Assembly: GCA_965645245.1 (NCBI GenBank)
Contig: OZ287088.1
Location: forward strand, 186,001-250,000
Source: Massalongia carnosa
Lineage: Eukaryota
Reading direction: 5' to 3'
Length of the DNA stretch: 64,000 bases
The notes beneath the pieces are model-generated. The model saw only the letters and a list, made by a program, of their open reading frames with translations, ran no database searches and was not told where the DNA came from. This document shows positions 1,601 to 64,000 of the stretch, one piece after another. Positions within the stretch are counted from its first letter, which is position 1; every line of letters starts with the position of its first letter. The translations under genes and the position numbers were made by a program.

Positions 1601-2257
1601 AGTTCGTCTATGGCGAGAGCTAGTGCGGGACCGATGCTATTCGGCTACCAGCGGATTCGGCAACCAGCGGATCGGCTACCAGCGGTTCTCCACGCATGAC
1701 AGGGACAACAGGTAATGGACCTCTTCGGCTTTGCACGGTTAATCGCCAGGAGCTGGTTCGGATAACGACGGGGGATCGGATAGGGAACGATGGATGACAG
1801 GGTGGAGATGGAGGCTATATAGAGGGCCAAAGCAGTCCTACATCTCCTCATCATCTCGTATCGGGAAATCGGGAGGACCCGGGAATTGGTCAAATGGTCG
1901 ACTAGTAGGCTACATTAGTCAATTAGCCGAAATGTTCTAGGTACTGCCGATTGCGCCCACCTTTGACATGGGCGCTTGACGAATAGTCGAACATTTGACG
2001 TGTAAACAGTTTCTCTTTGACTATTGATTACCTTTACTATTCTTTGTCCAATGATGATAATTGTTATATTGTCTCTTTTGTGTCATTATAAGCATTTGAA
2101 TCCAATAATTTCATTAATTAACTTGTTGTTTAGTAACGATTGTAACAAATCTTCAAAATACACTGCTTCTGTTTCCTTTTCGAGCGCTTGATGCTGCATG
2201 ATACGACAATAAAGACACACCAGTCAAGTATATTATCAAGATTTGGGTTAAATAATG

Positions 2258-4675
2258 TTATGTAAGTTCTCCCATATTGTCGTCCTCCCTCACAGAGTTT
2301 TCATCTGCTTGAGAATGCGCCCAGTTTCCTCTTCGTATCATTACTCTATGCACCTGTTCCACCCGATCCAAAAACGAACTATATTCCTCCTCAAAGCTCA
2401 ATACGGCCTCGGGAAATGTTGGTACAGTATACCAGAACGACTCTCCATCTTTCATTCCCACAGCAGTCTGCCACTCCTTCCACGTTGCATCATACCTCAT
2501 CCGAATCCGCCAGTCTTTCCCCATGCGTAAATCGTAATGTACCGCAACTTCTTGACCCGAACTGTCGTCACGATTGCGTCTTGCGCGAGTGGAGTTGGAG
2601 TTGACGATGTCTTGTCGTTAAACTGTTTCCAACGCAATTGTTAGACTAACAGATATTCTACAACAAAAGCGAATACTTACGAAGGATGAACTTGATGCGC
2701 TGTTCTTTAATTGTGAGGGCCCACGTTACGAAGAATTCTAGGAGAGATGTTAATACCACTTTAGACCGCGGTTAATAAGATTGCATACCTCGTGGCTCGT
2801 CAACTGCGGCGGTCTAGGTGAAGAGGTTTCCTTCTATTGTTGTTACTGATAATTCCAAAGCATATTACCAATCAAGACATACAGAAAAACCCGAATCCAC
2901 CTCCTCGCAACGAACGATCGAAGTTCTACATGAAGATGTCAAGGAAGAAAGCCGCGCTGTCGACCTGACCGACTTTGTCATTTCATCTCCCGCATCAAGA
3001 TCTACAAGATCGTCAAGAAGTGGCAAATGGATTGTGGACAGCTTTTGTGACCGCCGAAAAGCCCCCATCTCTTTGTCCAGTCTGACGCATAACCCGCCGA
3101 TGAATGATTCTTTGTAACAACATCTTTCTCTCCGAGGACTGTTGATTCCAGGTGTTCGTCATTCGAGTATGGATTGCTTTTCAGTATTATTGCCTCAACT
3201 CAGCAAAGATTATATTGATACAAACTTACTCTCTCGCTGCGACCCATCAAAAGCCTGTACCTTTTTTTGCCCGTATTCGTACTCTCCAATAGCATGTTGA
3301 ATCAGAGTTGCTATCAATACGATCACTTCTCCTCGAAGTGGATTGAACAAATGCGCAGTATCGGTATTGCGTCCATAAATGCATTCATTGTCGTTATTGA
3401 AGAATATCAGAGTAACTGCCTTTATCAAGATAGGCGCGAGAAACTGATTTTTCGGAGCCTACTCGCGAGTTAGTTAAACTTTGTATCAAGACAACTAGGA
3501 CATATTAACCGTTGATAAATCTTCGCACAGAAAATGAAGATCGTCTAGCAAAGTGGACACGAATATTCGACAGTCGCTCTGAACTGAGAACGGGTATTCG
3601 TTAGCCACAAGCAATCTCACTTTGCTCAACATTTGAGAGCGAAAATCCGTTGTCGAATCATAAATCTAGTCTTAGATTAGTTTTTATATGTACAAATCCG
3701 TTGTAAGCAAGACCTCACCTACCCTGCGAGCCTCTTTGGCGGTGGGAAGCTCTGCTACGTCGACGTTCCGGTTGCCAGGAAGGTCACCGAGACGCTTTGC
3801 AAGGTCCTGCCAAGTACGACTCATTAATTTGCTCAATCGAGGCTTCTGTGTGTTTGCCCAAGGCGAACATAATTCAACCGCGTGTCCGGACGTTATCAGA
3901 GCGTTGAAAAAAGGAATCATGGCACGTAGTATTAGTTGATGAGCAGGGCTAGAGTTGGACTTGGTTCGCCTTGATATGTCACCCCAGAGTAAACGATAAG
4001 TATCTATTTATTTTGATTTCGGAGACTGTCTCGTATTCCGTTATGCCAGCCCTTGTGCCGGAAGTAGACTTGATCGGGAGGACATTTGAGATCTCGAGAG
4101 TTTGCGAGGAGAGTGTCGCAGGCAAACCCCGACGAGTGCTTATTTGTGAAGGCGACAAGATGTTATCCAGCGCGCGGGAAGAGTTTCTCGGTGGAGACGA
4201 GGGTAATGTTTCCCTTCGTAAGGAGCTCCTTCGAGATGGAGAACTTGAGCTGTATTGAATACCGCGGCCTGCGCCGGCCCGTAATGTCCTCGCCACATAC
4301 TTAGTTATCGGCTTTTTCTGTTCTAAGTCAGAACCCGATACATGCATTCATGACTGTACTATTTACACTCGGCTGGAAACTCACATCGCTTGAGTCGTTG
4401 CCAGTACTAGATTCAGCCAACTCGTCCACACAAGACAGGCGATGTGAGCGTTTGTTGTCTCCGTAAGTGTTATTTCCATCAAATTGTGCACGAGAGCGTT
4501 TTAGTTGTGTCAATGTAGGCAAGTCTTCCTCGGAAGGCGAATCATCAAAATCCTGAGAGTTCTCGAAGGAAAAGCAAAGTCAGCGATAAGCGTTGGTTTC
4601 TATACATCCTGGGGAGGTTCGTACCATTGTGATTCTTTGTGGGTTGTTGATAGTGGTTGCCTTTGATGTTGACAT
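2258..4675 (-). CDS. Putative multi-exon protein carried by the TIR element; central part resembles fungal DUF6532-like domains
   Basis: Co-oriented ORFs (4328-4522, 3979-4347, 3684-3920, 3210-3428, 2258-2524) are conserved in copy B. Recalled motif similarity: LFNPLRGEVIVLIATLIQHAIGEYEYG. Exon boundaries are approximate and the gene may be disrupted. Confidence 0.45.
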
Positions 4676-4977
4676 AGTGAAAAAAGAAGCAACAAGGGAC
4701 ATGCAATACCTGTGGATTTGGGAAACGAGCAAAGTAGAAGAGATCGACGCGAAAAGTAAAATGACCAAGTTTGCCATTGCAACCAAATCTAGCGTGTTAG
4801 GATCGTTGACTTTGTTATGATATGCTAACGGTTCCTGTTAGATTAAAACAGCCCCTGTTAGATCAAGAAAACCCTGTTAGATCAAGAAAATCTTGTTAGC
4901 TGTTAGATTAGGGTTAGTTGATGTTAGCTTACTGTAGATTATCTCTGTAAAAGGTTCAGTATGTCAAACCTCACATA

Positions 4978-5271
4978 CTATCCCCCTCTGAACAATCTTG
5001 AAAACATGAGTTTTTTGCAAGGGGAGGACGGGAGTGATGACTTAAAAGCACATGGGTGGAAACCAGGGCTTTGAGCCAATCAGGACATGTAAATATTTTT
5101 TACTGTACAGCCCTACAGCGAATCCCTTAGTGATTTTACCTTCCCCAAATATCCAGAAGATTCGACTGTCTGATTGGCGACAAGCCTGTATCCACGCCCG
5201 TTTTCACCCTAGCACATACCCCCGTACCGCCCTTGCAAAATCCCATGTTTTCAGGATTGTTCAGGGGGTAG
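4978..5271. mobile_element. ~295-bp MITE nested in TIR element copy A
   Basis: Imperfect ~45-bp TIRs (ccccctctgaacaatcttgaaaacatg..ttttgcaagg / ccttgcaaaatcccatgttttcaggattgttcagggg) flanked by TA. Confidence 0.8.
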
Positions 5272-5943
5272 TATAATAGTATCCGTTAACCTGTAACAAT
5301 AGTAACCAGGTATCATGGAAGCGGCAACGAGTCCGTGGCACTTCAGACCTGAAGCGTTGAAAACGGCGGACATAGCAGAGGACAACAGTGTTCATTGCGG
5401 AGATGATAGTACTGAATATAGTAAGCACCCCCGAAAAGCCTAATTCCTGCCCCAGACCTGCTCATCGACGCTCCGCAACGGCCCTTCGCCACATTCTTCG
5501 TGAACTGAATGTTCACCTCTTATGCCACCTTTTGAACATCAGCTAGACCATCTTTCGTCAACCATTTATCTACCATCCAGATCACCACCCAGATTACCTT
5601 TTGACCACCATCCAGACCACCGTCCATACCACCTTTTGACTATAATCCAAATCACCTCTTGTCCACTATCGATACGATCATACATATTATCTTTGACCAC
5701 CGTCCATACGAAGGATGCTGTGGCATGTGTAATCTATATCCCGATGAACAAATCAAGTAGTGGACTCTATTTGTCAGGTTAATATAACCAACCGAGTCCA
5801 TTTGTATTGCGACCGAGAGCGCCCCCCAATCGCACGTCCCATATATCTAGACGTTCATGTGCTCTTGAATCCTTTAGACTCGATGGATTGGGTATTTAGT
5901 TTATGTTTGGGATTATAACTTAACGTTTGGGATTATAACGTAA

Positions 5944-6113
5944 TGTAACGGTTCGACCATGCGTGGTCTGGACGGCAGGACCTACAGCGAACATAGCAGG
6001 AGTCCCAGTTATAGTAGAATAGAGCTTGGTCTGCGGACTAAGTATTGTGTCTTTTGGTCGGGAGGAGAGGTGGCGCAATGGTAGAAATCTATTCACTGTC
6101 TCGCTTCGTCACA
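5944..6113. mobile_element. 170-bp solo LTR nested in TIR element copy A
   Basis: tgtaacg...cgtcaca termini with near-TSD cgtaa/cgtac. The copy B equivalent has a perfect ttacg TSD. Confidence 0.8.
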
Positions 6114-7161
6114 CGTACCCTATTGTGTTAAGTTAGGATTAAAGAGAATTGGTTTCCTAAACGCATGCGCTTTTTAATAGGATAAGGAAGGGCTTCCGTC
6201 TAAGAGGGACTGTTGTTCCAGAACAGATGAGCTTAATATGTCGTCGCGGTAGTAGTTGGTCTCCTAAGATTTGTGCTCTGTAGGCATTAAGCAGGCTTTC
6301 TCGTCATCAAGTAACAGATAATCATCAATTCAAAGAACGATGAGAATCATAACCACGTAATAATGTAGAATGCTTTTGATCTTCGAGAACTGAATGTACG
6401 TAACATTATCTTCGATGAGACATGCAAGGTGGGTTGCGCATTATAAAGATATGTTATACGCAAGATACAAAAGCTGCAACGAAGTCAATGTATGACGATG
6501 CGACATGTAAAGAGAGCAGCTGAACAACCAAAATTACTCTGTGACGGATAAAGAGGACGTAAAGATAGGATAGAGTGGATAATATACGACTGAATTGTTA
6601 AAAGGTCAAGGTACAGAGAATAATAAAGCTTATCGAGACGAGAAGTAAAGACAGAGCGACGATTATTTGTTGAGATGCAGGTTGCACTGACTAATATGAC
6701 GACAAGACGTACAATAGATAAAGGCAACTGACTAAAGGTTGACGAATAAAGACTAAAGAAACCAAAGAGTCGAATATTTAATCATCAAGATCTATTAGTC
6801 ATCTCCCGATTTCCCGATGCGGATTCGGAGGTAGCATTGCATAGTAGTTTTTGACCCGCCCACCCACTCCAGGTCTCAGCCGCAGAGGTAGAGGGAGTTT
6901 CCACCGCGACTCTGCACCAAGGCCCGAAAGGGGGCGCTAGGTAGAAGCGCCGGCGAGAGTGACGGCGCCAGCGAGGTGCAGATCGCTGTGTTTCCGCCAA
7001 TCTTAGAAATAGAAGCAATACGAGGTCACATGAACTAGGGTGGAATATAACTGTTAGGGATCAGATTTACTTAAGCGGCGGTAGGGTGGAATAACTTTCG
7101 AGGGTAGGGTGCCATTTCGCGCCTCAGGCAGATTTACTTGATTCGAGTGGCCAGCAATAGC

Positions 7162-26614: not shown

Positions 26615-26816
26615 CTATCAAAACTCCATATTTTTGGCGGGAACCTAGCTTACATAACTGCCACTTATTTTGTCACCCCGCCCTATAGCTAGCCTAGACC
26701 ACAACAAATACACACCTTTTTGCACCCTTTCTTCACATAGCCCACTACGTGATACGACCTCTGCACATTCTTAACAGGCTAGCTGTATAAATATAAGAAG
26801 TTCAGGACCTTCTGTC

Positions 26817-29800
26817 ATGCCAGATAAAGACTTATGCCTATTATCTCTCGATGGAGGTGGAGTGCGAGGGCTATCGTCACTCGCAATCCTCAAGCGACTG
26901 ATGGAGATCATCAATCCGGATGCGCCGCCGAAGCCATGCGAGTATTTCAACATGATCGGAGGGACAAGTACCGGTGGATTGATTGCTATCATGCTGGGTC
27001 GTCTTGAGATGAACATTGATGAATGTATCGATGCTTATGTCGCATTGTTCGATCAAGTATTTCAAAAAAAGTGGCATCGTGTCACAATAAACGGACACGT
27101 ACAAGGGAGATTCGACACAGAAGAGCTGGAACGGTCAATTCGAGAAATCGTAAAGCGGAAGGACAAGGCAGGCGAAAATGCTCTCCTCAAAGGATCGGAG
27201 AATCAGCAGTGCAAAGTGTCAGTGCTTTGGAAGTTGCATTTACACGTACTATTCTAGTGATATTAACGAAGGCTAGATTTGTATGCGCTCTAAGCAAAGA
27301 GACAGCCGACACAGTCCTTTTCACATCGTATCCTTCTCGAGGATCCTCAGATATGTATCATAAGACACGAATTTGGGAGGCAGCTCGAGCCACATCTGCC
27401 GCATCATCCTTCTTTGATCCAATCAGAATTGGCCAGTTTGAAGAAGAATTTGTCGACGGGGCCGTGGGGGCTAACAATCCTGTCGCACAGCTTTGGAACG
27501 AGGCCAAAAGTGTGTGGTCAGATGAAGCGCTTGAGGGAAACATTAAATGCCTAATATCTATCGGTACCGGTGTTCCATCCTTGGATTCTTATGGCTCAAG
27601 CCTCTTCGAGATTGCAAAAACATTGAAAGACATTGCAACAGAGACAGAAAAAACAGCGGAGTCTTTCCATCGAGCACATTCAGATCTCGACGATGGGAAT
27701 CGCTATTTTCGTTTCAATGTTTCTCATGGGCTTGAGAGTATTGGACTCGAAGATGGAGCACAGAAGAACAAGATTATGGCCGCCACAACCCGCTATGTGG
27801 CTTTGGAAAGCATGATGAAACAAATGAAGCTCTGCGGAAATAATCTTTCCACACGAGAATGTGAGTTAATGTTTCCTTGATAATCTTTGATTTACTTAAT
27901 CTTTGAATAGATTCTGGTCCATACAAAGTGCCATTCAGTTTGAAAGGCCTACCCCGTGTACCCAAATTCGTAGCTCGTGATCAGGAAATGAATGACCTTA
28001 AGGAAAACCTTTTCCCCAAGCCAACTCGTGAGACTCGCCGGAAGGTATTCGTTTTGCACGGACTTGGCGGCTCCGGCAAGACTCAGCTAGCAATCGAGTT
28101 CGCTCAAAGATCACAGAAGATTTTCAGTTCAATTTTTTGGCTAAACGGCGATAGTAAGGAAAGTGTACGTCAAAGTCTTGCTCAGATTGGTCGAAAATTG
28201 CCCAAAGATCAAGTTCCGGATTTATGTAGAAGATTCCACAAAACATCCCCTGAAGAGCTAGATGAAATCATCAATAATATTCTGATTTGGTTCGATCAAC
28301 CCGAAAACAACCGATGGCTTCTCATTTTCGATAACATCGATCGTGATAACTCGCCTGAGGCAGATGATCCTCAATCATATGATGTAGAAGAATTTTTCCC
28401 AGAAGCCAATCACGGCTCTATTTTAATCACAAGCCGATTACGACAGCTGCGACAACATGGGCATGACCGGCAACTTGGGAGAATGAGCGATCTACAAGGA
28501 GCAGAAGTATTACGATACAGGATAGGACGATCAATCGAAGGTAATGAAAACCAAGCAACAGTCTTGGTCCAATTCACTAAGCAAGCATTATATAGACCTT
28601 GACAGGATCGTCGAGAAAGTGGGTGGTCTCCCACTTGCACTTGCTCATGCAGGCTCCTATATTCACGGAACGGCTACAAGTGTGAACGACTATATTCGAT
28701 ACTATGAAGAGACTTGGGAGAAGCTTCACGACAACAAAATGACGCGATTAAAAGATTATCCCCGTAACATTTTGTCTACGTACACCATTTCTTACGAATA
28801 TGTGCGACGCAATGACGCGAGCGCTGCAAAATTGCTTGATCTGTTTGCATATCTCGATCACTCAGATTTATGGTATTCTTTATTCACGCCTGTACTTCAC
28901 GAAAGCATTGTCCCAAAAGAGACATTACCTACCTGGTTTTCATGTAGCATGAAAACGGAGTTTGACTTTACACAGAAGATTCAAATACTGCTAGACTACT
29001 CTTTGATAGAAACACGATATGAGACCTCATCGTATGCGATTCATCCAATTATACATGACTGGTGTTTTCACTTGAGTTGGACCTCCAAGGACGATATAGC
29101 TTCTTTAGCAGTTTCTGTAATCGGTTCGGCATGTCATTCCACTGATAGTTCAGCAAACTGGCTGCATCGAAAACGACTGCTTGATCATTGTAGCCATGTT
29201 CACTTCTGCATTGGGAAAAGAACTGAAAACCTTGAAAGCAATGAGAGATGGGAACAAGTGTTATATTTTTCATATCGTGCTATTGGTGATTTTTCAAGAG
29301 AACAAGGCAAGATGAAAGAAGCCGAAGACATGTACTTGCGAGCATTGACAGGATACAAAAAGGCCCGGGGTCCTGAGCATACATCGACACTCGATACGGT
29401 CAACAATCTTGGACTTCTGTACAAGAATCAAGGCAAGATGAAAGAAGCCGAAGACATGTACTTGCGAGCATTGACAGGATACGAAAAGGCCTGGGGTCCT
29501 GAGCACACATCGACACTCATGACAGTCAACAATCTGGGAAATCTGTACTCGGATCAAGGCAAGATGAAAGAAGCCGAAGACATGTACTTGCGAGCATTGA
29601 CAGGATACGAAAAGGCCTGGGGTCCTGAGCACACATCGACACTCGATACAGTCAACAATCTGGGAAATCTGTACAAGAATCAAGGCAAGATGAAAGAAGC
29701 CGAAGACATGTACTTGCGAGCATTGACAGGAAAGGAAAAGGCCTGGGGTCCTGAGCACACATCGACAATCATGACAGTCATCAATCTAGGACTTCTGTAC

Positions 29801-31501
29801 TCGGATCAAGGCAAGATGAAAGAAGCCGAAGACATGTACTTGCGAGCATTGACAGGATACGAAAAGGCCTGGGGTCCTGAGCACACATCGACACTCATGA
29901 CAGTCAACAATCTGGGAAATCTGTACTCAGATCAAGGCAAGATGAAAGAAGCCGAAGACATGTACTTGCGAGCATTGACAGGATACGAAAAGGCCTGGGG
30001 TCCTGAGCACACATCGACACTCGATACAGTCAACAATCTGGGAAATCTGTACAAGAATCAAGGCAAGATGAAAGAAGCCGAAGACATATTCTTGCGAGCA
30101 TTGACAGGATACGAAAAGGCCTGGGGTCCTGAGCACACATCGACACTCGATACAGTCAACAATCTGGGAGCTCTGTACTCGGATCAAGGCAAGATGAAAG
30201 AAGCCGAAGACATGTACTTGCGAGCATTGACAGGATACGAAAAGGCCTGGGGTCCTGAGCACACATCGACACTCATGACAGTCAACAATCTGGGACTTCT
30301 TTACTCGGATCAAGGCAAGATGAAAGAAGCCGAAGACATGTACTTGCGAGCATTGACAGGAAAGGAAAAGGCCTGGGGTCCTGAGCACACATCGACACTC
30401 ATGACAGTCAACAATCTGGGACTTCTGTACTCGAATCAAGGCAAGATGAAAGAAGCCGAAGACATGTACTTGCGAGCATTGACAGGATACGAAAAGGCCT
30501 GGGGTCCTGAGCACACATCGACACTCGATACAGTCAACAATCTGGGAGCTCTGTACTCGGATCAAGGCAAGATGAAAGAAGCCGAAGACATGTACTTGCG
30601 AGCATTGACAGGATACGAAAAGGCCTGGGGTCCTGAGCACACATCGACACTCATGACAGTCAACAATCTGGGAAATCTGTACTCGGATCAAGGCAAGATG
30701 AAAGAAGCCGAAGACATGTACTTGCGAGCATTGACAGGATACGAAAAGGCCTGGGGTCCTGAGCACACATCGACAATCATGACAGTCAACAATCTGGGAC
30801 TTCTGTACTCGGATCAAGGCAAGATGAAAGAAGCCGAAGACATGTACTTGCGAGCATTGACAGGATACGAAAAGGCCTGGGGTCCTGAGCACACATCGAC
30901 ACTCATGACAGTCAACAATCTGGGAAATCTGTACTCGGATCAAGGCAAGATGAAAGAAGCCGAAGACATGTACTTGCGAGCATTGACAGGATACGAAAAG
31001 GCCTGGGGTCCTGAGCACACATCGACACTCGATACAGTCAACAATCTGGGAAATCTGTACAAGAATCAAGGCAAGATGAAAGAAGCCGAAGACATGTACT
31101 TGCGAGCATTGACAGGATACGAAAAGGCCTGGGGTCCTGAGCACACATCGACACTCATGACAGTCAACAATCTGGGAAATCTGTACAAGAATCAAGGCAA
31201 GATGAAAGAAGCCGAAGACATATTCTTGCGAGCATTGACAGGATACGAAAAGGCCTGGGGTCCTGAGCACACATCGACACTCGATACAGTCAACAATCTG
31301 GGAGCTCTGTACTCGGATCAAGGCAAGATGAAAGAAGCCGAAGACATGTACTTGCGAGCATTGACAGGATACGAAAAGGCCTGGGGTCCTGAGCACACAT
31401 CGACACTCAACACAGTCAACAATCTGGGACTTCTGTACAAGAATCAAGGCAAGATGAAAGAAGCCGAAGACATGTACTTGCGATGCTTCTTGAAGAGTTA
31501 G
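26817..31501 (+). CDS. Fungal NLR: patatin-like phospholipase - NB-ARC - TPR (~1506 aa); exons 26817-27217, 27277-27860, 27911-28540, 28596-31501
   Basis: Patatin motifs LDGGGVRG, GTSTG and DGA; P-loop GLGGSGKT, Walker B LLIFDNID, ITSR, GGLPLAL, IHPIIHDW; then a TPR array. Three GT-AG introns (59, 50 and 55 nt) join the exons in frame, totalling 4521 nt. Confidence 0.93.
29303..31483 (+). repeat. Tandem array of 17 full plus 1 partial 126-bp (42-aa) TPR-coding repeats
   Basis: caaggcaagatgaaagaagccgaagac recurs every 126 bp from 29303 to 31445. Confidence 0.97.
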
Positions 31502-55746: not shown

Positions 55747-55798
55747 ACATCGGGAAATCGGGAGATGACTAATAGATCTTGATGATTAAATATTCGTA

Positions 55799-57495
55799 CG
55801 GAGGATGACATAAAAAGTCCTTGGTAGCGTGCATTAGTGCATTTTTAGCGTCGTGCAGAAAGGACGCTAAAAATTAAATATGGGGTTTAATAGATATTGT
55901 ACATTTTGACCTATGCAGCATCTTTCATTTATCAGATATCATCAAATAAAATTTTGAATGCTTCGAATCATGACATCACGAACTCAGAACAATAGTCTGA
56001 CTACTGGGCAAAAGTTACAAGCATTATCTTTGGTTGAACACACATAGCAGTCAAAGTCGTTCAAGCAGTCACTGGAGTCTCTACTCAGTCTATCAGTTAT
56101 ATCAAGCGCAAGGCACGAGATCGAGTATATGATCCCACTGTTTCGCGAATATTGAAGGTAGAATACGTAGAAGATGCATGTCGTTCAGGACCTCCTCCTA
56201 AAGTGACGTCTGAGGTAGAACAGGCCATTTTAGACAACATTCGTGATGATCGAAATGGTAGAGAAAAATCCTCAGCCGTTTTGGGATATGAGCACGGAGT
56301 CTCATCTACAACTATTCTCAATGTTCTTCGACGCAATAACTCTCGTCCCTGCAAATCTACCATGAAACCAGGCCTTGATTCAGCAATGAAAGAGGCTCAA
56401 TTGCAATTCTGTTTGCGTTATCGTCATTGGACTCTCGATGACTGGAAGAATGTCATATGGAGCGATGAAACTAGTGTTGTGTTAGGCTCTCGAAGAGGGC
56501 GAAGACTTCAGTGGCGAACTCCAAAAGAAAAATATGCTCAAACGTGCATTCGACGTAGATGGAAAGGATGTTCCGAATTCATGTTTTGGGATTGTTTTTC
56601 GTATGAAAACAAAGGTCCTTTTCATATATGGAAGCCGGAGACAGCGGCAGAAAAACGTGCCGCTCAAGGAGAAATCGACAAAATCAATGAGGCATTGGAG
56701 CCTCTAGCGAAAGAAAACTGGGAATTGGAAATAGGCATGAAACGAATGGGACTGCGTACCAAGGGAGGTCGAAAACCGGTCTGGAAATGGGATGAAAGGC
56801 ATGGAAAAGTGGCTCGAAAAGGCAAAGGGGGCATCGACTGGCATCGTTATCAAAAAACTATTCTTCTTCCCAAATTTCTTCCGTTTGCAAAAGAATGTAT
56901 AAAAGATCGTCCCGATTCCAGGAGGACAAGGCTCCTAGTCATGCTTCCAAACATCAAGACCTCGTCTTTATGGATGCAGAAGTCTTGCGTTTATTGTGGC
57001 CGGGTAATTCTCCTAATTTGAACATGATCGAGCAATGTTGGCCTTGGATGAAAAGGCAAACCACACGAAAAGGAGCACCTCGAAATCGCATTACGGCTAT
57101 CAAAGCATGGACTCGGTGCTGGACAAAAACTCTGAAACAAAAACAAATTCAGCAATGGATAGAACGAATTCCACGACATATAGAAGAAGTCATCGCTTTG
57201 AATGGAGTAAACGAGTATCGAGAGGGTCGAGACAATGGTGTGGTTCGGCCATATAATTCCGAAGATCATCGCATTCGCTATCGCATAGACATTATATCTG
57301 ATAGCAGTGATGTAGACTGATCATGTCATAAGTCTGCATATAGACCTGATTTTCAATGCATTATATCGTTTGAAAATGAGGTTGATGTGAGAAAAATAAA
57401 GATGATAAATCAAATATAGAAAAGGGGCATTGATGCAGCGCTAAATCCTTAGTGCCATTCTTAGCGCATCCAAGGACTTTTTGTGTCATCCTCCG
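55799..57495 (+). mobile_element. Tc1/mariner DNA transposon with frameshifted transposase
   Basis: ~26-bp TIR cggaggatgaca.aaaaagtccttgg flanked by TA; motifs IWSDETSV, QEDKAPSH and WPGNSPNLNMIE across ORFs 56152-57021 and 56895-57320. Confidence 0.93.
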
Positions 57496-57849
57496 TAGTC
57501 AGTTGCCTTTATCATTTTTATTATTAATTCATTAAGCGTATACATCCTAAGGATATGACGCTGTAACTGCTATTTATGTACATAAACAACAGTCAGGAAG
57601 TGGAAACCTGGCCCCCAGGGTAAAACCACTCCCTTGTTCCATGTTGAACGCAACGAGACCGTCCTTCTACCACGCGGTGCATACACCCAGATCTTCAAGC
57701 GCTAGGAATCCTATAGACTCGATGAACTAGACAGTGTATTTCCACACGTTCGACGAACGTTCTCTCTCTTTAAACGTTTTGATTCAATGGAGGAAAGACT
57801 GGCCGTGATCGAGGGCAGATCGTGGTGTCCTATAAATGAAGGTGTGTAA

Positions 57850-57995
57850 GTGTGGCCATTCTAAATGAATGGGCTTTTTCGATGTGGTGAAAGGCTTCCG
57901 CCTGAGGGGTGTGGCCATTCCGAATGAATGGGCTTTTTCGATGAGGTGAAAGGCTTCCGCCTGAGGGGTGTGGCCATTCCGAATGAATGGGCTTT
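57850..57995. repeat. ~2.5 tandem copies of a 59-bp unit inside the retroposon
   Basis: gtgtggccattc(c/t)(g/a)aatgaatgggcttt recurs at about 57850, 57909 and 57968. Confidence 0.85.
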
Positions 57996-58080
57996 GTATG
58001 TGTGCCTTCGAGGTGACGAATGATCAGTAGAGACGTTGATCGTTCAAATGGCCACCGAGGTGGACTTCCGCGTTGGCGAT

Positions 58081-58152
58081 GATCAGATATTGGCCACCTC
58101 CGAGGAGGTGTTGATAGCCTGCACCACATAGAGGTTTCTGACCCAGCAGGCC
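58081..58152 (-). ncRNA. HDV-like self-cleaving ribozyme at the 5' end of the retroposon
   Basis: Manual fold: P1 GGCCUGC/GCAGGCU (G1-U wobble), P2 GGUCAGA/UCUGAUC, P3 ACC/GGU, L3 UCUAUGU, linker AUCAA, P4 CACCUC-CUCG-GAGGUG, J4/2 GCCAA. Confidence 0.8.
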
Positions 58153-58757
58153 GTTGCCTTTATCTATTGTACGTACGTCTTGTCGTCATATTAGTCAGTG
58201 CAACTTGCATCTCAACAAATAATCGTCGCTCTGTCTTTACTTCTCGTCTCGATAAGCTTTATTATTCTCTGTACCTTGACCTTTTAACAATTCAGTCGTA
58301 TATTATCCACTCTATCCTATCTTTACGTCCTCTTTAATTTTGGTTGTTCAGCTGCTCTCTTTACATGTCGCATCGTCATACATTGACTTCGTTGCAGCTT
58401 TTGTATTTTGCGTATAACATATCTTTATAATGCGCAACCCACCTTGCATGTCTCATCGAAGATAAAGTTACGCACATTCAGTTCTCGAAGATCAACAGTA
58501 TTCTACATCATTACGTGGTTGTGATTCTCATTATTCTTTGAATTGATGATTATCTGTTACTTGATGACGAGAAAGCCTGCTTAATGCCTACAGAGCCCAA
58601 ATCTTAGAAGACCAACTACTACCGCGACGACATATTAAGCTCATCTGTTCTGGAACAACAGTCCCTCTTAGACGGAAGCCCTTCCTTATCCTATCAAAAA
58701 GCGCATGCGTTTAGGAAACCAATTCTCTTTAATCCTAACATAACACAACAGGTTACG

Positions 58758-58927
58758 TGTGACGAAGCGAGATAGTGAATATATTTCTACCATTGCGCCA
58801 CCTGTCCTCCCGACCAAAAGGCACAATACTTAGTCCGCAGACCAAGCTCTATTCTACTATAACTGGGACTCCTGCTATGTTCGCTGTAGGTCCTGCTGTC
58901 GAGACCACGCATGGTCGAACCGTTACA
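58758..58927. mobile_element. 170-bp solo LTR in TIR element copy B
   Basis: tgtgacg...cgttaca with a perfect ttacg TSD. Confidence 0.88.
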
Positions 58928-59578
58928 TTACGTTATAATCCCAAACATAAATTAAACACCCAATCCATCGAGTCTAAAGGATTCAAGAGCACATGAAGGT
59001 CTAGATATATGGGATGTGCGATAGGGGGGCGCTCTCGGCCGCAATACAAATGGACTCGGTTGGTTATATTAACCTGACAAATAGAGACCACTACTTGATT
59101 TGTTCATCGGGATATAGATTACACATGCCACAGCATCCTTCGTATGGACGGTGGTCAAAGATAATATGGATGATCGTATCGATAGTGGACAAGAGGTGGT
59201 TTGGATGATAGTCAAAAGGTGGTATGGACGGTGGTCTGGATGGTGGTCAAAAGGTAAGCTGGGTGGTGATCTGGATGGTATATAAATGGTTGACGAAAGA
59301 TGGTCTAGATGATGTTCAAAAGGTGGTATAAGAGGTGAACATTCAGTTCACGAAGAATGTGGCGAAGGGCCGTTGCGGAGCGTCGATGAGCAGGTTTGGG
59401 CAGGAATTAGGCTTTTCGGGGGTGCTTACTATATTCAGTACTATCGTCTCCGCAAAGAACACTGTTGTCTTCTGCTATGTCCGCCGTTTTCAACGCTTCA
59501 GGTCTGAAGTGCCACGGACTCGTTGCCGCTTCCATGATACCTGGTAACTATTGTTACAGGTTAACGGATATCATTATA

Positions 59579-59884
59579 CTAACCCCCCCTCTGAACAATC
59601 TTGAAAACATGGGATTTTGCAAGGGCGGTACGGGGGTATGTGCTAGGGTGAAAACGGGCGTGGATACAGGCTTGTCGCCAACCAGACAGTCGAATCTTCT
59701 GGATATTTGGGGAATGAGGTAAAATCACTAAGGGATTCGCTGTAGGGCTGTACAGTAAAAAATATTTACATGTCCTGATTAGCTCGAAGCCCTGGTTTTC
59801 CACCCATGTGCTGTCAAGTCATCACTCCCGTCCTCCCCCTTGCAAAAAACCCATGTTTTCAAGATTGTTCAGGGGGGGGGATAG
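59579..59884. mobile_element. MITE in TIR element copy B
   Basis: Same TIRs and TA flanks as 4978-5271, at the orthologous position. Confidence 0.8.
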
Positions 59885-62800
59885 TAAGTATGTGAGGTTT
59901 GACATACTGAACCTTTTACAGAGATGATCTACGGTAAGCTAACATTAACTAACCCTAATCTAACAGCTAACAGGATTTTCTTGATCTAACAGAGGTTTCT
60001 TGATCTAAAGGGGCTGTTTTAATCTAACAGGAACCGTTAGTACTAGTATATCATAACAAAGTCAACGATCCTAACACGCTAGATTTGGGATCATTTTACT
60101 TTTCGCGTCGATCTCTTCTACTTTGCATATTCCTTGTAGCTTCTTTTTTTTCACTATGTCGACATCAAAGGCAACCACTATCAACAACCCACAAAGAATC
60201 ACAATGGTACGAACCTCTCCAGGATGTATAGAAACCAACGAGTATCGGCTGACTTTGCTTTTCCTTCGAGAACTCTCAGGATTTTGATGATTCGCCTTCC
60301 GAGGAAGACTTGCCTACATTGACATAACTAAAACGCTCTCGTGCACAATTTGATGGAAATAACACTTACGGAGACAACAAACGCTCACATCGCCTGTCTT
60401 GTGTGGACGAGTTGGCTGAATCTAGTACTGGCAACGACTCAAGCGATGCGAGTTTCCAGTCGAGTGTAAATAGTACAGTCATGAATGCATGTATTGGGTT
60501 CTGACTTAGAACAGAAAAAGCCGATAACTAAGTATGTAGCGAGGACATTACGGGCCGGCGCAGGCCGCGGTATTCAATACAGCTCAAGTTCTCCATCTCG
60601 AAGGAGCTCCTTACGAAGGGAAACGTTCCCCTCGTCTCCACCGAGAAACCCTTCCCGCGCGCTGGATAATATCTTGTCGCCTTCACAAATACGCACTCGT
60701 CGGGGTTTACCTGCGACACTCTCCTCGCAAACTCTCGAGATCTCAAAGGTCCTCCCGATCAAGTCTACTTCTGGCACAAGGGCTGGCATAACGGAGGACG
60801 AGACAGTCTCCGAAATAAATAAAAATAGATGCTTATCGTTTACTCTGGGGTGACATATCAAGGCGAACCAAGTTCAACTCTAGCCCTGCTCATCAACTAA
60901 TACTACGTGCCATGATTCCTTTTTTCAACGCTCTGATAACGTCCGGCCACGCGGTTGAATTATGTTCGCCTTGGGCGAACACACAGAAGCCTTGCTTGAG
61001 CAAATTAATGAGTCGTACTTGGCAGGACCTTGCGAAGCGTCTCGGTGACCTTCCTGGCAACCGGAACGTCGACGTAGCAGAGCTTCCCACCGCCAAAGAG
61101 GCTCGCAGGGTAGGTGAGGTCTTGCTTACAACGGATTTTGTACATATAAAAACTAATCTGAGACTAGATTTGTGATTGGACAACGGGTTTTCGGTCTCAA
61201 ATGTTGAGCAAAGTGAGATTGCTTGTGGCTAACGAATACCCGTTCTCAGTTCAGAGCGACTGTCGAATATTCGTGTCCACTTTGCTAGACGATCTTCATT
61301 TTCTGTGCGAAGATTTATCAACGGTTAATATGTCCTAGTTATCTTGATATAAAGTTTAACTAACTCGCGAGTAGGCTCCGAAAAACCAGTTTCTCGCGCC
61401 TATCTTGATAAAGACAATTACTCTGATATTCTTCAATAACGACAATGACTGCAGTTATGGACGCAATACCGACACTGCGCATTTGTTCAATCCACTTCGA
61501 GGAGAAGTGATCATATTGATAGCAACTCTGATTCAACATGCTATTGGAGAGTACGAATACGGGCAAAAAAAGGTACAGGCTTTTGATGGGTCACAGCGAG
61601 AGAGTAAGTCTGTATCAATATAATCTTTGCTGAGTTGAGGCATTAATACTGAAAAACAATCCATACTCGAATGACGAAAACCTGGAATCAACAGTCCTCG
61701 GAGAGAAAGATGTTGTTACAAAGAATCATTCATCGGCGGGTTATGCGTCAGACTGGACAAAGAGATGGGGACTTTTCGGCGGTCACAGAAGCTGTCCACA
61801 ATCCATTTGCCACTTCTATTGACGATCTTGTAGATCTTGATGTGGGAGATGAAATGACATAGTCGGTCAGGTCGACAGCGCGGCTTTCTTTCTTCCTTGA
61901 CATCTTCGTGTAGAACTTCGATCGTTCGTTGCGAGGAGGTGGATTCGGGTTTTTCGGTATGTCTTGATTGGTATTATGCTTTGGAATTATCAGTAACAAC
62001 AATAGAAGGAAACCTCTTCACCTAGGCCGCCGCAGTTGACGAGCCACGAGGTATGGAATCTTATTAACCGCGTTCTAACGTGGTATTAACATCTCTCCTA
62101 GAATTCTTCGCAACGTGGACCCTCACAATCAAAGCACAGCGCATCAAGTTCATCCTTCGTAAAAATTCGCTTTGTTTGTAGAATATCTGTTAGTCTAACA
62201 ATTGCGTTGGAAACAGATTAACGACAAGATATCGTCAACTCCAACTCCACTCGCGCAAGACGCAATCGTGACGACAGATTCGGGTCAAGAAGTTGCGGTA
62301 GATTACGATTTACGCATGGGGAAAGACTGGCGGATTCGGATAAGGTATGCTGCAACGTGGAAGGAGTGGCAGACTGCTGTGGGAATGAAAGATTGAGAGT
62401 CGTTCTGGTATACTGTACCAAAATTTCCCGAGGCCGTATTGAGCTTTGAGGAGGAATATAGTTCGTTTTTGGATTGGGTGGAACAGGTGCATAGATTAAT
62501 GATACGAAGAGGAAACTGGGCGCAATCTCAAGCAGATGAAGACTCATCGAGGGAGGACGACAATATGGGAGAACTCACATAACATTATTTAAACCAAATC
62601 TTGATAATATACTCGACTGGTGTGTCTTTATTGTCATATCTGGCAGCATCAAGCGCTCGAAAAGGAAACAAAAGCAGTGCATTCTGACAAACGCAAGATT
62701 TGTTACAATCGTTACTAAAACAACAAGTTAATTAATGAAATTATTGGATTCAAATGCTTACAATAACACAAAAGAGTCAATATAACAATTATCATCATTG

Positions 62801-64000
62801 GACAAAGAAAGGTAAAGGTAATCAATAGTCAAAGAGCAACTTACACGTCAAATGTTCGACTATTCGTCAAGAACGTGTGGCGCAATCGGTACCTAGAACA
62901 TTTCGGCTAATTGACTAATGTAGCCTATTAGTCGACCATTTGACCAATTCGCGGGTCCTCCCGATTTCCCGATGTAACCTCGTCTTTCAAGGTAATACGC
63001 AATCCCGATTTTGTAACTCGAAACTGCCGGAAAGAAGCCATTTCAGCGATGTAATTTATCGATAATCAGCTATTATAATAATTATAATATCCTTTGCCTT
63101 ATTAAATCAGTTTCAGGATTTTCTTCAATAAGTTGTAGAAGAGATATTGATTGAAAGTATGTTTCGTGGTTTTGTTAGTTCCGAATAAGCGGGTGTTCCG
63201 AATACAGGTGAATTAGGTTACAGGCTCATGCCCCGAATAGTTGCTGTCATGCGGTACTCGTTACTCTGTACTCGATACTGTGTATACTCGGTTACTGATC
63301 GCTATTTGAGTTGAATGGTGTCAAAACACTAAACAATAACCGAGAGACCCTGCCTCGATTGAGGTTGCCTGTTCTGTATGAGGTAGCGGGTAGCCTTGTT
63401 GATATGACTCAATTAGGCCCCGCTAGAAGCCTAATCGGATTCTGATCGAACTTTTAAGATTAGCGACCTGCCCTACAGGGCGTGACTGCTTTCGTTCCCG
63501 TGTCGCATGACTGTGTCTTTATCGGCGTCGCTAGAATGATTTCCCGCTTACAATACTTCGCTACGTCATCTCGTCTGAAAACGGGCGGATTTAATCGCAG
63601 CATCGGAGATAAAGCTGAAGAAGTGAGTTCAAACCTTTGCTATTTCTTTGATGACTTCTGCCATCTACTCTCATCATCAACTCATTGAGGATTTGGAATC
63701 ATGTCTCTAAATGAAAGCCATGCATGTCCGGTCACGACGAAACGACACTCATGTTTTCAGAGGGTTGCAACGCATCAGCGCAGACCCTTCCAGCAGCGGA
63801 TTCTCAATAGGCAAGGTACAGATCGAGAAAATAACAAAGGATGAAATATTGGACAGAGTTTTTGCTAATTACAATGACATACAGGGCCTCAGAGCAAATC
63901 TATACCTTCATTCCCACTTTCATCCTCACCTTCATCCCCACCCTCTCTTCTGGACCCGGCCGAAGTTGATCAGCTTTGGACACAAGTAAGATCCATCGGT

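Follow-up and report, generated by a model that had tools for sequence, protein, structure and literature searches.

Short and long interspersed elements (SINEs and LINEs) carrying HDV-like ribozymes (HDV, hepatitis delta virus) are known in diverse metazoans (PMC6765202). In R2, SIDEs, RTE and baggins, the ribozyme lies at the 5′ end and releases the element's own RNA from the longer co-transcript; promoter-less elements rely on read-through, and non-autonomous forms keep the ribozyme (PMC6765202; PMC3414825). The LINE L1Tc of Trypanosoma cruzi shares its first 77 nt (Pr77, L1TcRz) with NARTc, a non-coding, non-autonomous element, and these 77 nt are an HDV-like ribozyme that cuts at +1, has a single-pair P1.1 and is fast (PMC3185411). 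Here we describe a 639-bp element in DNA of Massalongia carnosa, lying at positions 57514–58152 of a 64,000-nt stretch of contig OZ287088.1 (the window, to which all coordinates refer), with the minus strand as sense and the 5′ end at 58152. An initial annotation had proposed a SINE-like fungal retroposon that starts with an HDV-like ribozyme, a proposal supported in every part that could be tested computationally. We put at about 0.8 the probability that the element is a whole copy of a multi-copy, non-coding, non-LTR (LTR, long terminal repeat) retroposon family of lichen-associated ascomycetes, promoter-less or promoter-poor, headed by a 72-nt self-cleaving ribozyme of HDV-like type that would free its RNA from longer transcripts for copying by a LINE enzyme.

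The element is bracketed by an exact 12-bp duplication, GTTGCCTTTATC, found at 57502–57513 on the side of the 3′ tail and again at 58153–58164, directly upstream of the first ribozyme base (G1). The window also contains an inverted 4.8-kb duplication (58153–62973 against 6728–1860, 93.8% identity), which provides a paralogous site: in the second copy (copy A) the 12-mer occurs once (6728–6717, reverse strand) and the insert is missing. The exact duplication and the empty paralogous site therefore confirm 57514–58152 as an insertion with target-site duplication. On this point the initial annotation was accurate throughout, in its coordinates for the insert, in the exact 12-bp duplication, in the absence of the insert from copy A and in its reading of the minus-strand 5′ end. 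To the left of the insert, just 18 nt are common to copies A and B before homology stops. This break is due to a Tc1/mariner insertion (55797–57497) and to a missing stretch in copy B, where ~40 nt of copy A, beside the mariner, have no counterpart. The mariner has 28-bp inverted ends (55797–55824 and 57470–57497, 96% match) and reading frames that match HTH_Tnp_Tc3_2 and DDE_3 (Pfam); it sits in copy B, just 4 nt from the retroposon's target duplication. Past it, homology is restored (55748–55796 to 6819–6771, 49 nt at 100%). Copy B has been the target of both the retroposon and the mariner insertions, and the reading frames of the 4.8-kb duplication (58153–62973; 1860–6728) have no Pfam match.

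The predicted ribozyme occupies the first 72 nt of the element (58081–58152, minus strand; ribozyme position n is window coordinate 58153 − n), as judged from Rfam matches below threshold, a covariance model (R1, below), folding and the register of its class. Four helices form in canonical order and register, giving a nested double pseudoknot whose columns are those of 24 natural relatives. P1 has seven pairs with a G1–U37 wobble (nt 1–7 with 31–37; 58146–58152 with 58116–58122), P2 seven with one G–U (nt 10–16 with 66–72; 58137–58143 with 58081–58087), P3 three (nt 18–20 with 28–30; 58133–58135 with 58123–58125) and P4 six (nt 43–48 with 53–58, in a hairpin at 58095–58110). All 23 pairs are intact in the window copy (P1 7/7, P2 7/7, P3 3/3, P4 6/6). 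The connecting segments are the loop L3 (58126–58132), the junction J1/4 (58111–58115) and the junction J4/2, reading G-C-C-A-A (58090–58094). The second base of J4/2, C60 (58093), is the candidate catalytic cytosine: it aligns with the GGC cytosine of the two Rfam HDV models and with a cytosine found in 24 of 24 rows of our alignment of natural relatives (alignment A1), where the base was fixed by the search pattern. The predicted cut site, 5′ of G1, falls on the very base that adjoins the target duplication. Minimum-energy folding recovers P1, P3 and P4, leaving both strands of P2 free.

The helices, the candidate cytosine at 58093 and the predicted cut site 5′ of 58152 thus all stand as the initial annotation had drawn them, with one correction in P2. 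There the annotation had placed a bulged A; we rejected this version, since seven contiguous pairs form without it. Its single pair in P1.1 holds, U23–A38 being the sole possibility with C22 opposite U39. The accompanying worry that this copy might be decayed loses force, given that the same A–U precedes CAAC in 24 of 24 aligned natural relatives, although the pattern used to find them left both bases free, and given the speed of the L1Tc ribozyme on one P1.1 pair (PMC3185411).

These relatives were collected with a pattern confined to the unpaired core (P3–L3–P3′, CAAC and GCYAA), with no constraint on P1, P2, P4 or the two bases that follow P1. Shuffled versions of the window are expected to yield 0.00 matches to it. 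A scan of metagenome contigs returned 58 loci, two of them overlapping on one contig. About half are chance matches in seemingly coding sequence; the remainder share the window's register, with a P1 of 7 bp, a P2 of 6–8 bp and a hairpin at P4. Altogether, an HDV-like ribozyme fold is seen in 28 model matches in the metagenome loci. In six cases the ribozyme begins immediately behind a tRNA gene within tRNA arrays (L002, L009, L013, L032 with two, and L042), the tRNA 3′-end setting that PMC10879173 describes for phage theta ribozymes. Viral contigs gave four matches to the core, of phage type only, one of them in a contig equal in length (176,332 bases) to that of L009, and prokaryote genomes gave none to the exact 26-mer. 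A degenerate form of the core found one match in prokaryote genomes, which we discarded as a chance match in coding sequence, without helices.

Two further features of the metagenome loci were noted in passing. In the phage-like contig L009, a second ribozyme (6713–6788) was found by the covariance model only (52.8 bits); it starts one base past the tRNA end, and its L3 is one base off the core used for the search. Separately, 14 loci (L010, L011, L016, L019, L024, L026, L027, L031, L035, L039, L041, L047, L051 and L057) hold a single HDV-like lineage in very AT-rich DNA, in which a conserved hairpin, formed by a U-run pairing with an A-run, precedes the cut site. An Rfam search of six of these loci detected no tRNA, and four reading frames neighbouring L041 have no Pfam match.

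For model R1 we used 11 metagenomic sequences, excluding the window, and specified P1, P3 and P4 as the structure. Run over the 64 kb with filters off, it gives a single match under E 0.1 (58152–58078, minus strand, 40.1 bits, E 5e-7), with model position 1 on G1 (58152); the runner-up reaches 12 bits. When the window is scored together with 57 of the 58 loci (all but L033, because of its overlap with L032), two groups appear. The 28 metagenomic ribozymes score 43.2–81.9 bits, 17 of them from outside the seed, and the 27 other rows, mostly chance core matches without helices, score 23.8 bits or less. Sharing the core thus brings no more than ~24 bits by itself, a control that matters for a class collected with that very core. 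Covariation was read from a 25-row alignment of metagenomic relatives and the window. Paired cells make up 93.5%, against 27–40% when partners are slid, and in 17 of the 22 pairs both partners vary. Covariation is strong in P1, P2 and P4; it takes in each of the seven P2 pairs, although P2 had no place in the model, and the window fills every pair. The alignment supports placing the head, as a predicted fold, within a natural covarying class of HDV-like ribozymes with four helices in register.

The initial annotation had named the Rfam HDV models as a check, with a divided outcome. Both match at the head over their full length, and both stay under their gathering scores (RF00094, 22.7 bits against 50; RF02682, 22.6 bits against 44). 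They account for two of the five Rfam matches with E ≤ 10 over 3 kb, where HDV models match this spot only; nothing in the 64-kb window reaches any Rfam gathering score. Among 19 natural ribozymes of the class, in 17 loci searched, a single one passes (L013, 44.8 against 44). With the other 18 also missing the threshold, a sub-threshold score says little against the window candidate, and routine annotation at gathering thresholds would miss most of the class.

Sequencing runs show that the element is not a single copy. The stretch or parts of it are present in 20 runs among those listed, from 12 studies covering eight organisms and lichen metagenomes; X19 and X20 (RNA, share 0.05) and the other runs with a small share have no bearing on expression or habitat. 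We aligned the contigs of four runs to 57300–58400 at 80% likeness, with X1 contributing 2,199 pieces. In X1 and X5, summed contig depth rises ~10–20 fold over the flanks between bins 57522 and 58150. Among the junctions listed, unlike flanks begin at 58152 in 20 cases (11 in X1, 7 in X5 and 2 in X6) and at 58153 in five (3 and 2). The latter fit a single 5′ end at G1, because a quarter of random flanks will match one further base. The 3′ ends are ragged, with loose ends at 57515, 57523 and 57527, as tails that differ in length would produce. An internal control is provided by the mariner boundary at 57497: it too breaks contigs in X1 and X5, showing that the method detects transposon borders and that the mariner is likewise multi-copy. 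In three organisms (X1, X5 and X6), the retroposon is a multi-copy family with a fixed 5′ end at G1. Both expectations of the initial annotation, copies that begin at G1 and a family in place of a lone insertion, are borne out by the junctions at 58152 or 58153, the many unlike flanks and the raised depth. A further X5 contig carries an empty site with a left flank of the copy A type. X11, considered as additional evidence for the family, was set aside as too little (a single 172-nt contig ending at 58152).

Four X5 contigs match 58081–58152 only and then continue into another sequence that is similar among the four. The shared stretch is exactly the 72-nt ribozyme, which therefore looks like a module common to another element; the four may belong to a different element family or to the autonomous partner itself. 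The head also varies less than the body among the variable places listed. None of the 29 listed places within the element falls in 58070–58152 (76 places in total, 36 of them outside those listed); an even spread would put ~4 of the 29 in the head, and the chance of none is ~0.02, as a rough figure. Diverged copies that cover the head do occur, X5 records 12–14 having 21–22 differences over 120–150 nt (roughly 15%).

From 5′ to 3′, the element consists of the head, ~50 nt of unique sequence, tandem 59-nt units, a unique region, hairpins and a tail, all on the minus strand. There are three 59-nt units (57850–58026), each with a 5–6 bp hairpin and with 100%, 95% and 64% identity to the reference copy; contig joints that skip 108–124 nt here suggest that the number of repeats varies between copies. 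Just ahead of the tail lie two stable hairpins, one of 14 bp and one of 11 bp that is interrupted (57535–57595). The fold of 57514–57620 (−30 kcal/mol, z-score −2.8) is equalled by three of 200 shuffles, and a reverse transcriptase might bind at these hairpins. The tail is A/T-rich and ends in A5-T (57514–57534). The sole open frame longer than 44 amino acids has 99 (57830–58129), starts at an AUG in the ribozyme loop L3, passes through the 59-nt repeats in a different frame from unit to unit and matches nothing in Pfam; it probably does not represent a gene, in keeping with the non-coding character that had been claimed. The element thus combines a target duplication, an A/T-rich tail, unrelated flanks and no coding capacity, as a non-autonomous non-LTR retroposon does.

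We infer a cycle of read-through transcription, self-cleavage and mobilization by a LINE partner. The element would be transcribed within a longer RNA starting upstream, although a promoter of its own is possible. Its head would fold as the nested double pseudoknot, with C60 (58093) helping to cut the bond 5′ of G1, so that the freed RNA would begin exactly at the first base of the element with a 5′ hydroxyl. A LINE reverse transcriptase/endonuclease would then use the 3′ hairpins and the A/T-rich tail in trans, target-primed reverse transcription leaving the ~12-bp duplication and full-length cDNA ending at G1. Every new copy would consequently carry the ribozyme and need no promoter of its own.

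Several results weigh against this reading. The head misses the Rfam gathering scores by far, its 40.1 bits are the lowest in the R1 ribozyme group (the others reach 43.2 or more), and P1.1 offers one Watson–Crick pair. Its fold energy is ordinary (z-score −1.19), with 25 of 200 shuffles folding equally well. Since the search for the class started from the core of the candidate itself, the argument is to that extent circular, its independent content being the helices, the spacing and the A–U after P1. The relatives stand outside any retrotransposon context: no member of the retroposon family occurs among the 58 metagenome loci, and 24 reading frames beside L001, L028, L029, L041 and L053 contain no Pfam family and no reverse transcriptase. 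Nor is there a LINE reverse transcriptase/endonuclease in the 61 window frames of 110 amino acids or more or in the element's own 99-amino-acid frame, the reverse transcriptases of the window being all of gypsy or copia type. Two of these points, the single P1.1 pair and the lowest score, would suit a head that is HDV-shaped but does not cut, acting instead as an internal promoter (compare Pr77) or a protein-binding structure, with the 5′ end set by transcription from +1. A promoter role is plausible in itself and leaves cleavage compatible, the 77 nt of L1Tc being both promoter and ribozyme (PMC3383444). We nevertheless consider a non-cutting head unlikely: the class-invariant core positions are all present (L3, A–U, CAAC and G-G-C-x-A-A), every helix pair is intact in the window copy and the head is the least variable part of the element among the variants listed.

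The tandem arrangement of one contig raises a different route to the same 5′ end. In X1, 58152 is joined back to 57523, tail to head, which is either a tandem copy or a circle junction, and could reflect a retrozyme-like cycle in which tandem copies are transcribed, cut by the ribozyme into units, closed into circles by a ligase of the host and then copied from this circular RNA. The ends left by HDV-type cleavage are joinable by an RtcB-type ligase. Yet this is a single contig, the window copy stands alone, and a duplication with an A/T-rich tail is the usual mark of target-primed reverse transcription of linear RNA; we regard such a cycle as very improbable. Still less probable is an ordinary SINE of RNA polymerase III (Pol III), derived from tRNA, 5S or 7SL RNA, or a mere chance resemblance to HDV. 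Size and an A-rich tail would agree with a Pol III SINE, as would one weak B-box-like word at nt 10, with two mismatches to the consensus. However, ARAGORN finds no tRNA in 57300–58400, Rfam reports neither tRNA nor 5S or 7SL RNA with E ≤ 10, and the element has no A box within two mismatches, in agreement with the lack of a Pol III-type head in the initial annotation and at odds with the tRNA, 5S or 7SL head and the A and B boxes of a canonical Pol III SINE. Chance resemblance, for its part, would have to explain an R1 match of E 5e-7 in 64 kb that starts on the base adjoining the duplication. This last pair of explanations is largely refuted here, and the self-cleaving retroposon head is the reading that we carry forward.

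The surroundings point to the host group. The window is dense with pogo/Tc5, Tc1/mariner, hAT, gypsy and copia elements, and its pogo transposase has its nearest clusters in Ascomycota, bearing out the fungal host that had been proposed. The host DNA is ascomycete-like and transposon-rich. Among the transposons, adjacent frames at 26775–31501 have matches to patatin, to NB-ARC/AAA_16 and to an extended series of TPR_10/TPR_12 repeats, an architecture that recalls fungal NLR-type immune genes.

Full-text literature searches, with subscription papers mostly outside their reach, found no fungal retroposon with an HDV-like ribozyme. A structure-based survey of 2009 reportedly listed a fungal HDV-like ribozyme. 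A retroposon head of this kind is apparently unreported in fungi, a known type of arrangement in a new host group, and would extend a retrotransposon device from animals and trypanosomes to fungi. If the head does cleave, this would explain the precise 5′ end and the mobility of a fungal SINE-like family without a Pol III promoter, provide a sequence handle for the partner LINE and for related families in other fungi, and mean that the curated thresholds of Rfam overlook the greater part of this ribozyme class (1 of 19 passed). A broader proposal, which we hold tentatively and at a little under even odds, is that the ribozyme is a portable, promoter-independent 5′ module of at least two retroposon families of lichen-associated ascomycetes (one perhaps an autonomous LINE), the first such system in fungi, and that its core, letter for letter of the phage tRNA-trimming type, would reflect either tight convergence or an old shared origin.

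Compared with R2, SIDEs, RTE and baggins, the window family would share the release of element RNA by a 5′ ribozyme, the reliance on read-through and the persistence of the ribozyme in a non-autonomous form. Those cases are metazoan, and R2 and SIDEs are site-specific in 28S ribosomal DNA, whereas the window family has many unrelated flanks. NARTc, paired with L1Tc, offers the parallel of a non-coding, non-autonomous element headed by an HDV-like ribozyme with a single-pair P1.1, its copies being both dispersed and in tandem (PMC3185411). It differs in host kingdom, in that the trypanosome 77 nt are a proven internal promoter and in that the LINE partner is known there. The core of the window ribozyme is of the phage and F. 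prausnitzii type. Phage ribozymes, for their part, adjoin the 3′ ends of tRNAs or lie within non-coding phage DNA, and P4 is minimal in theta ribozymes (PMC10879173); the window ribozyme, unlike these, heads a eukaryotic retroposon, with no tRNA 3′ end close to its cut site (none in 57300–58400) and with a full 6-bp P4 hairpin. In its core, the window ribozyme nonetheless matches the theta and full-size tRNA-adjacent phage ribozymes and RF02682 (F. prausnitzii type): the P3–L3–P3′ sequence, the junction of A–U and CAAC, and a J4/2 of G-G-C-Y-A-A are common to them, and their helices keep one register.
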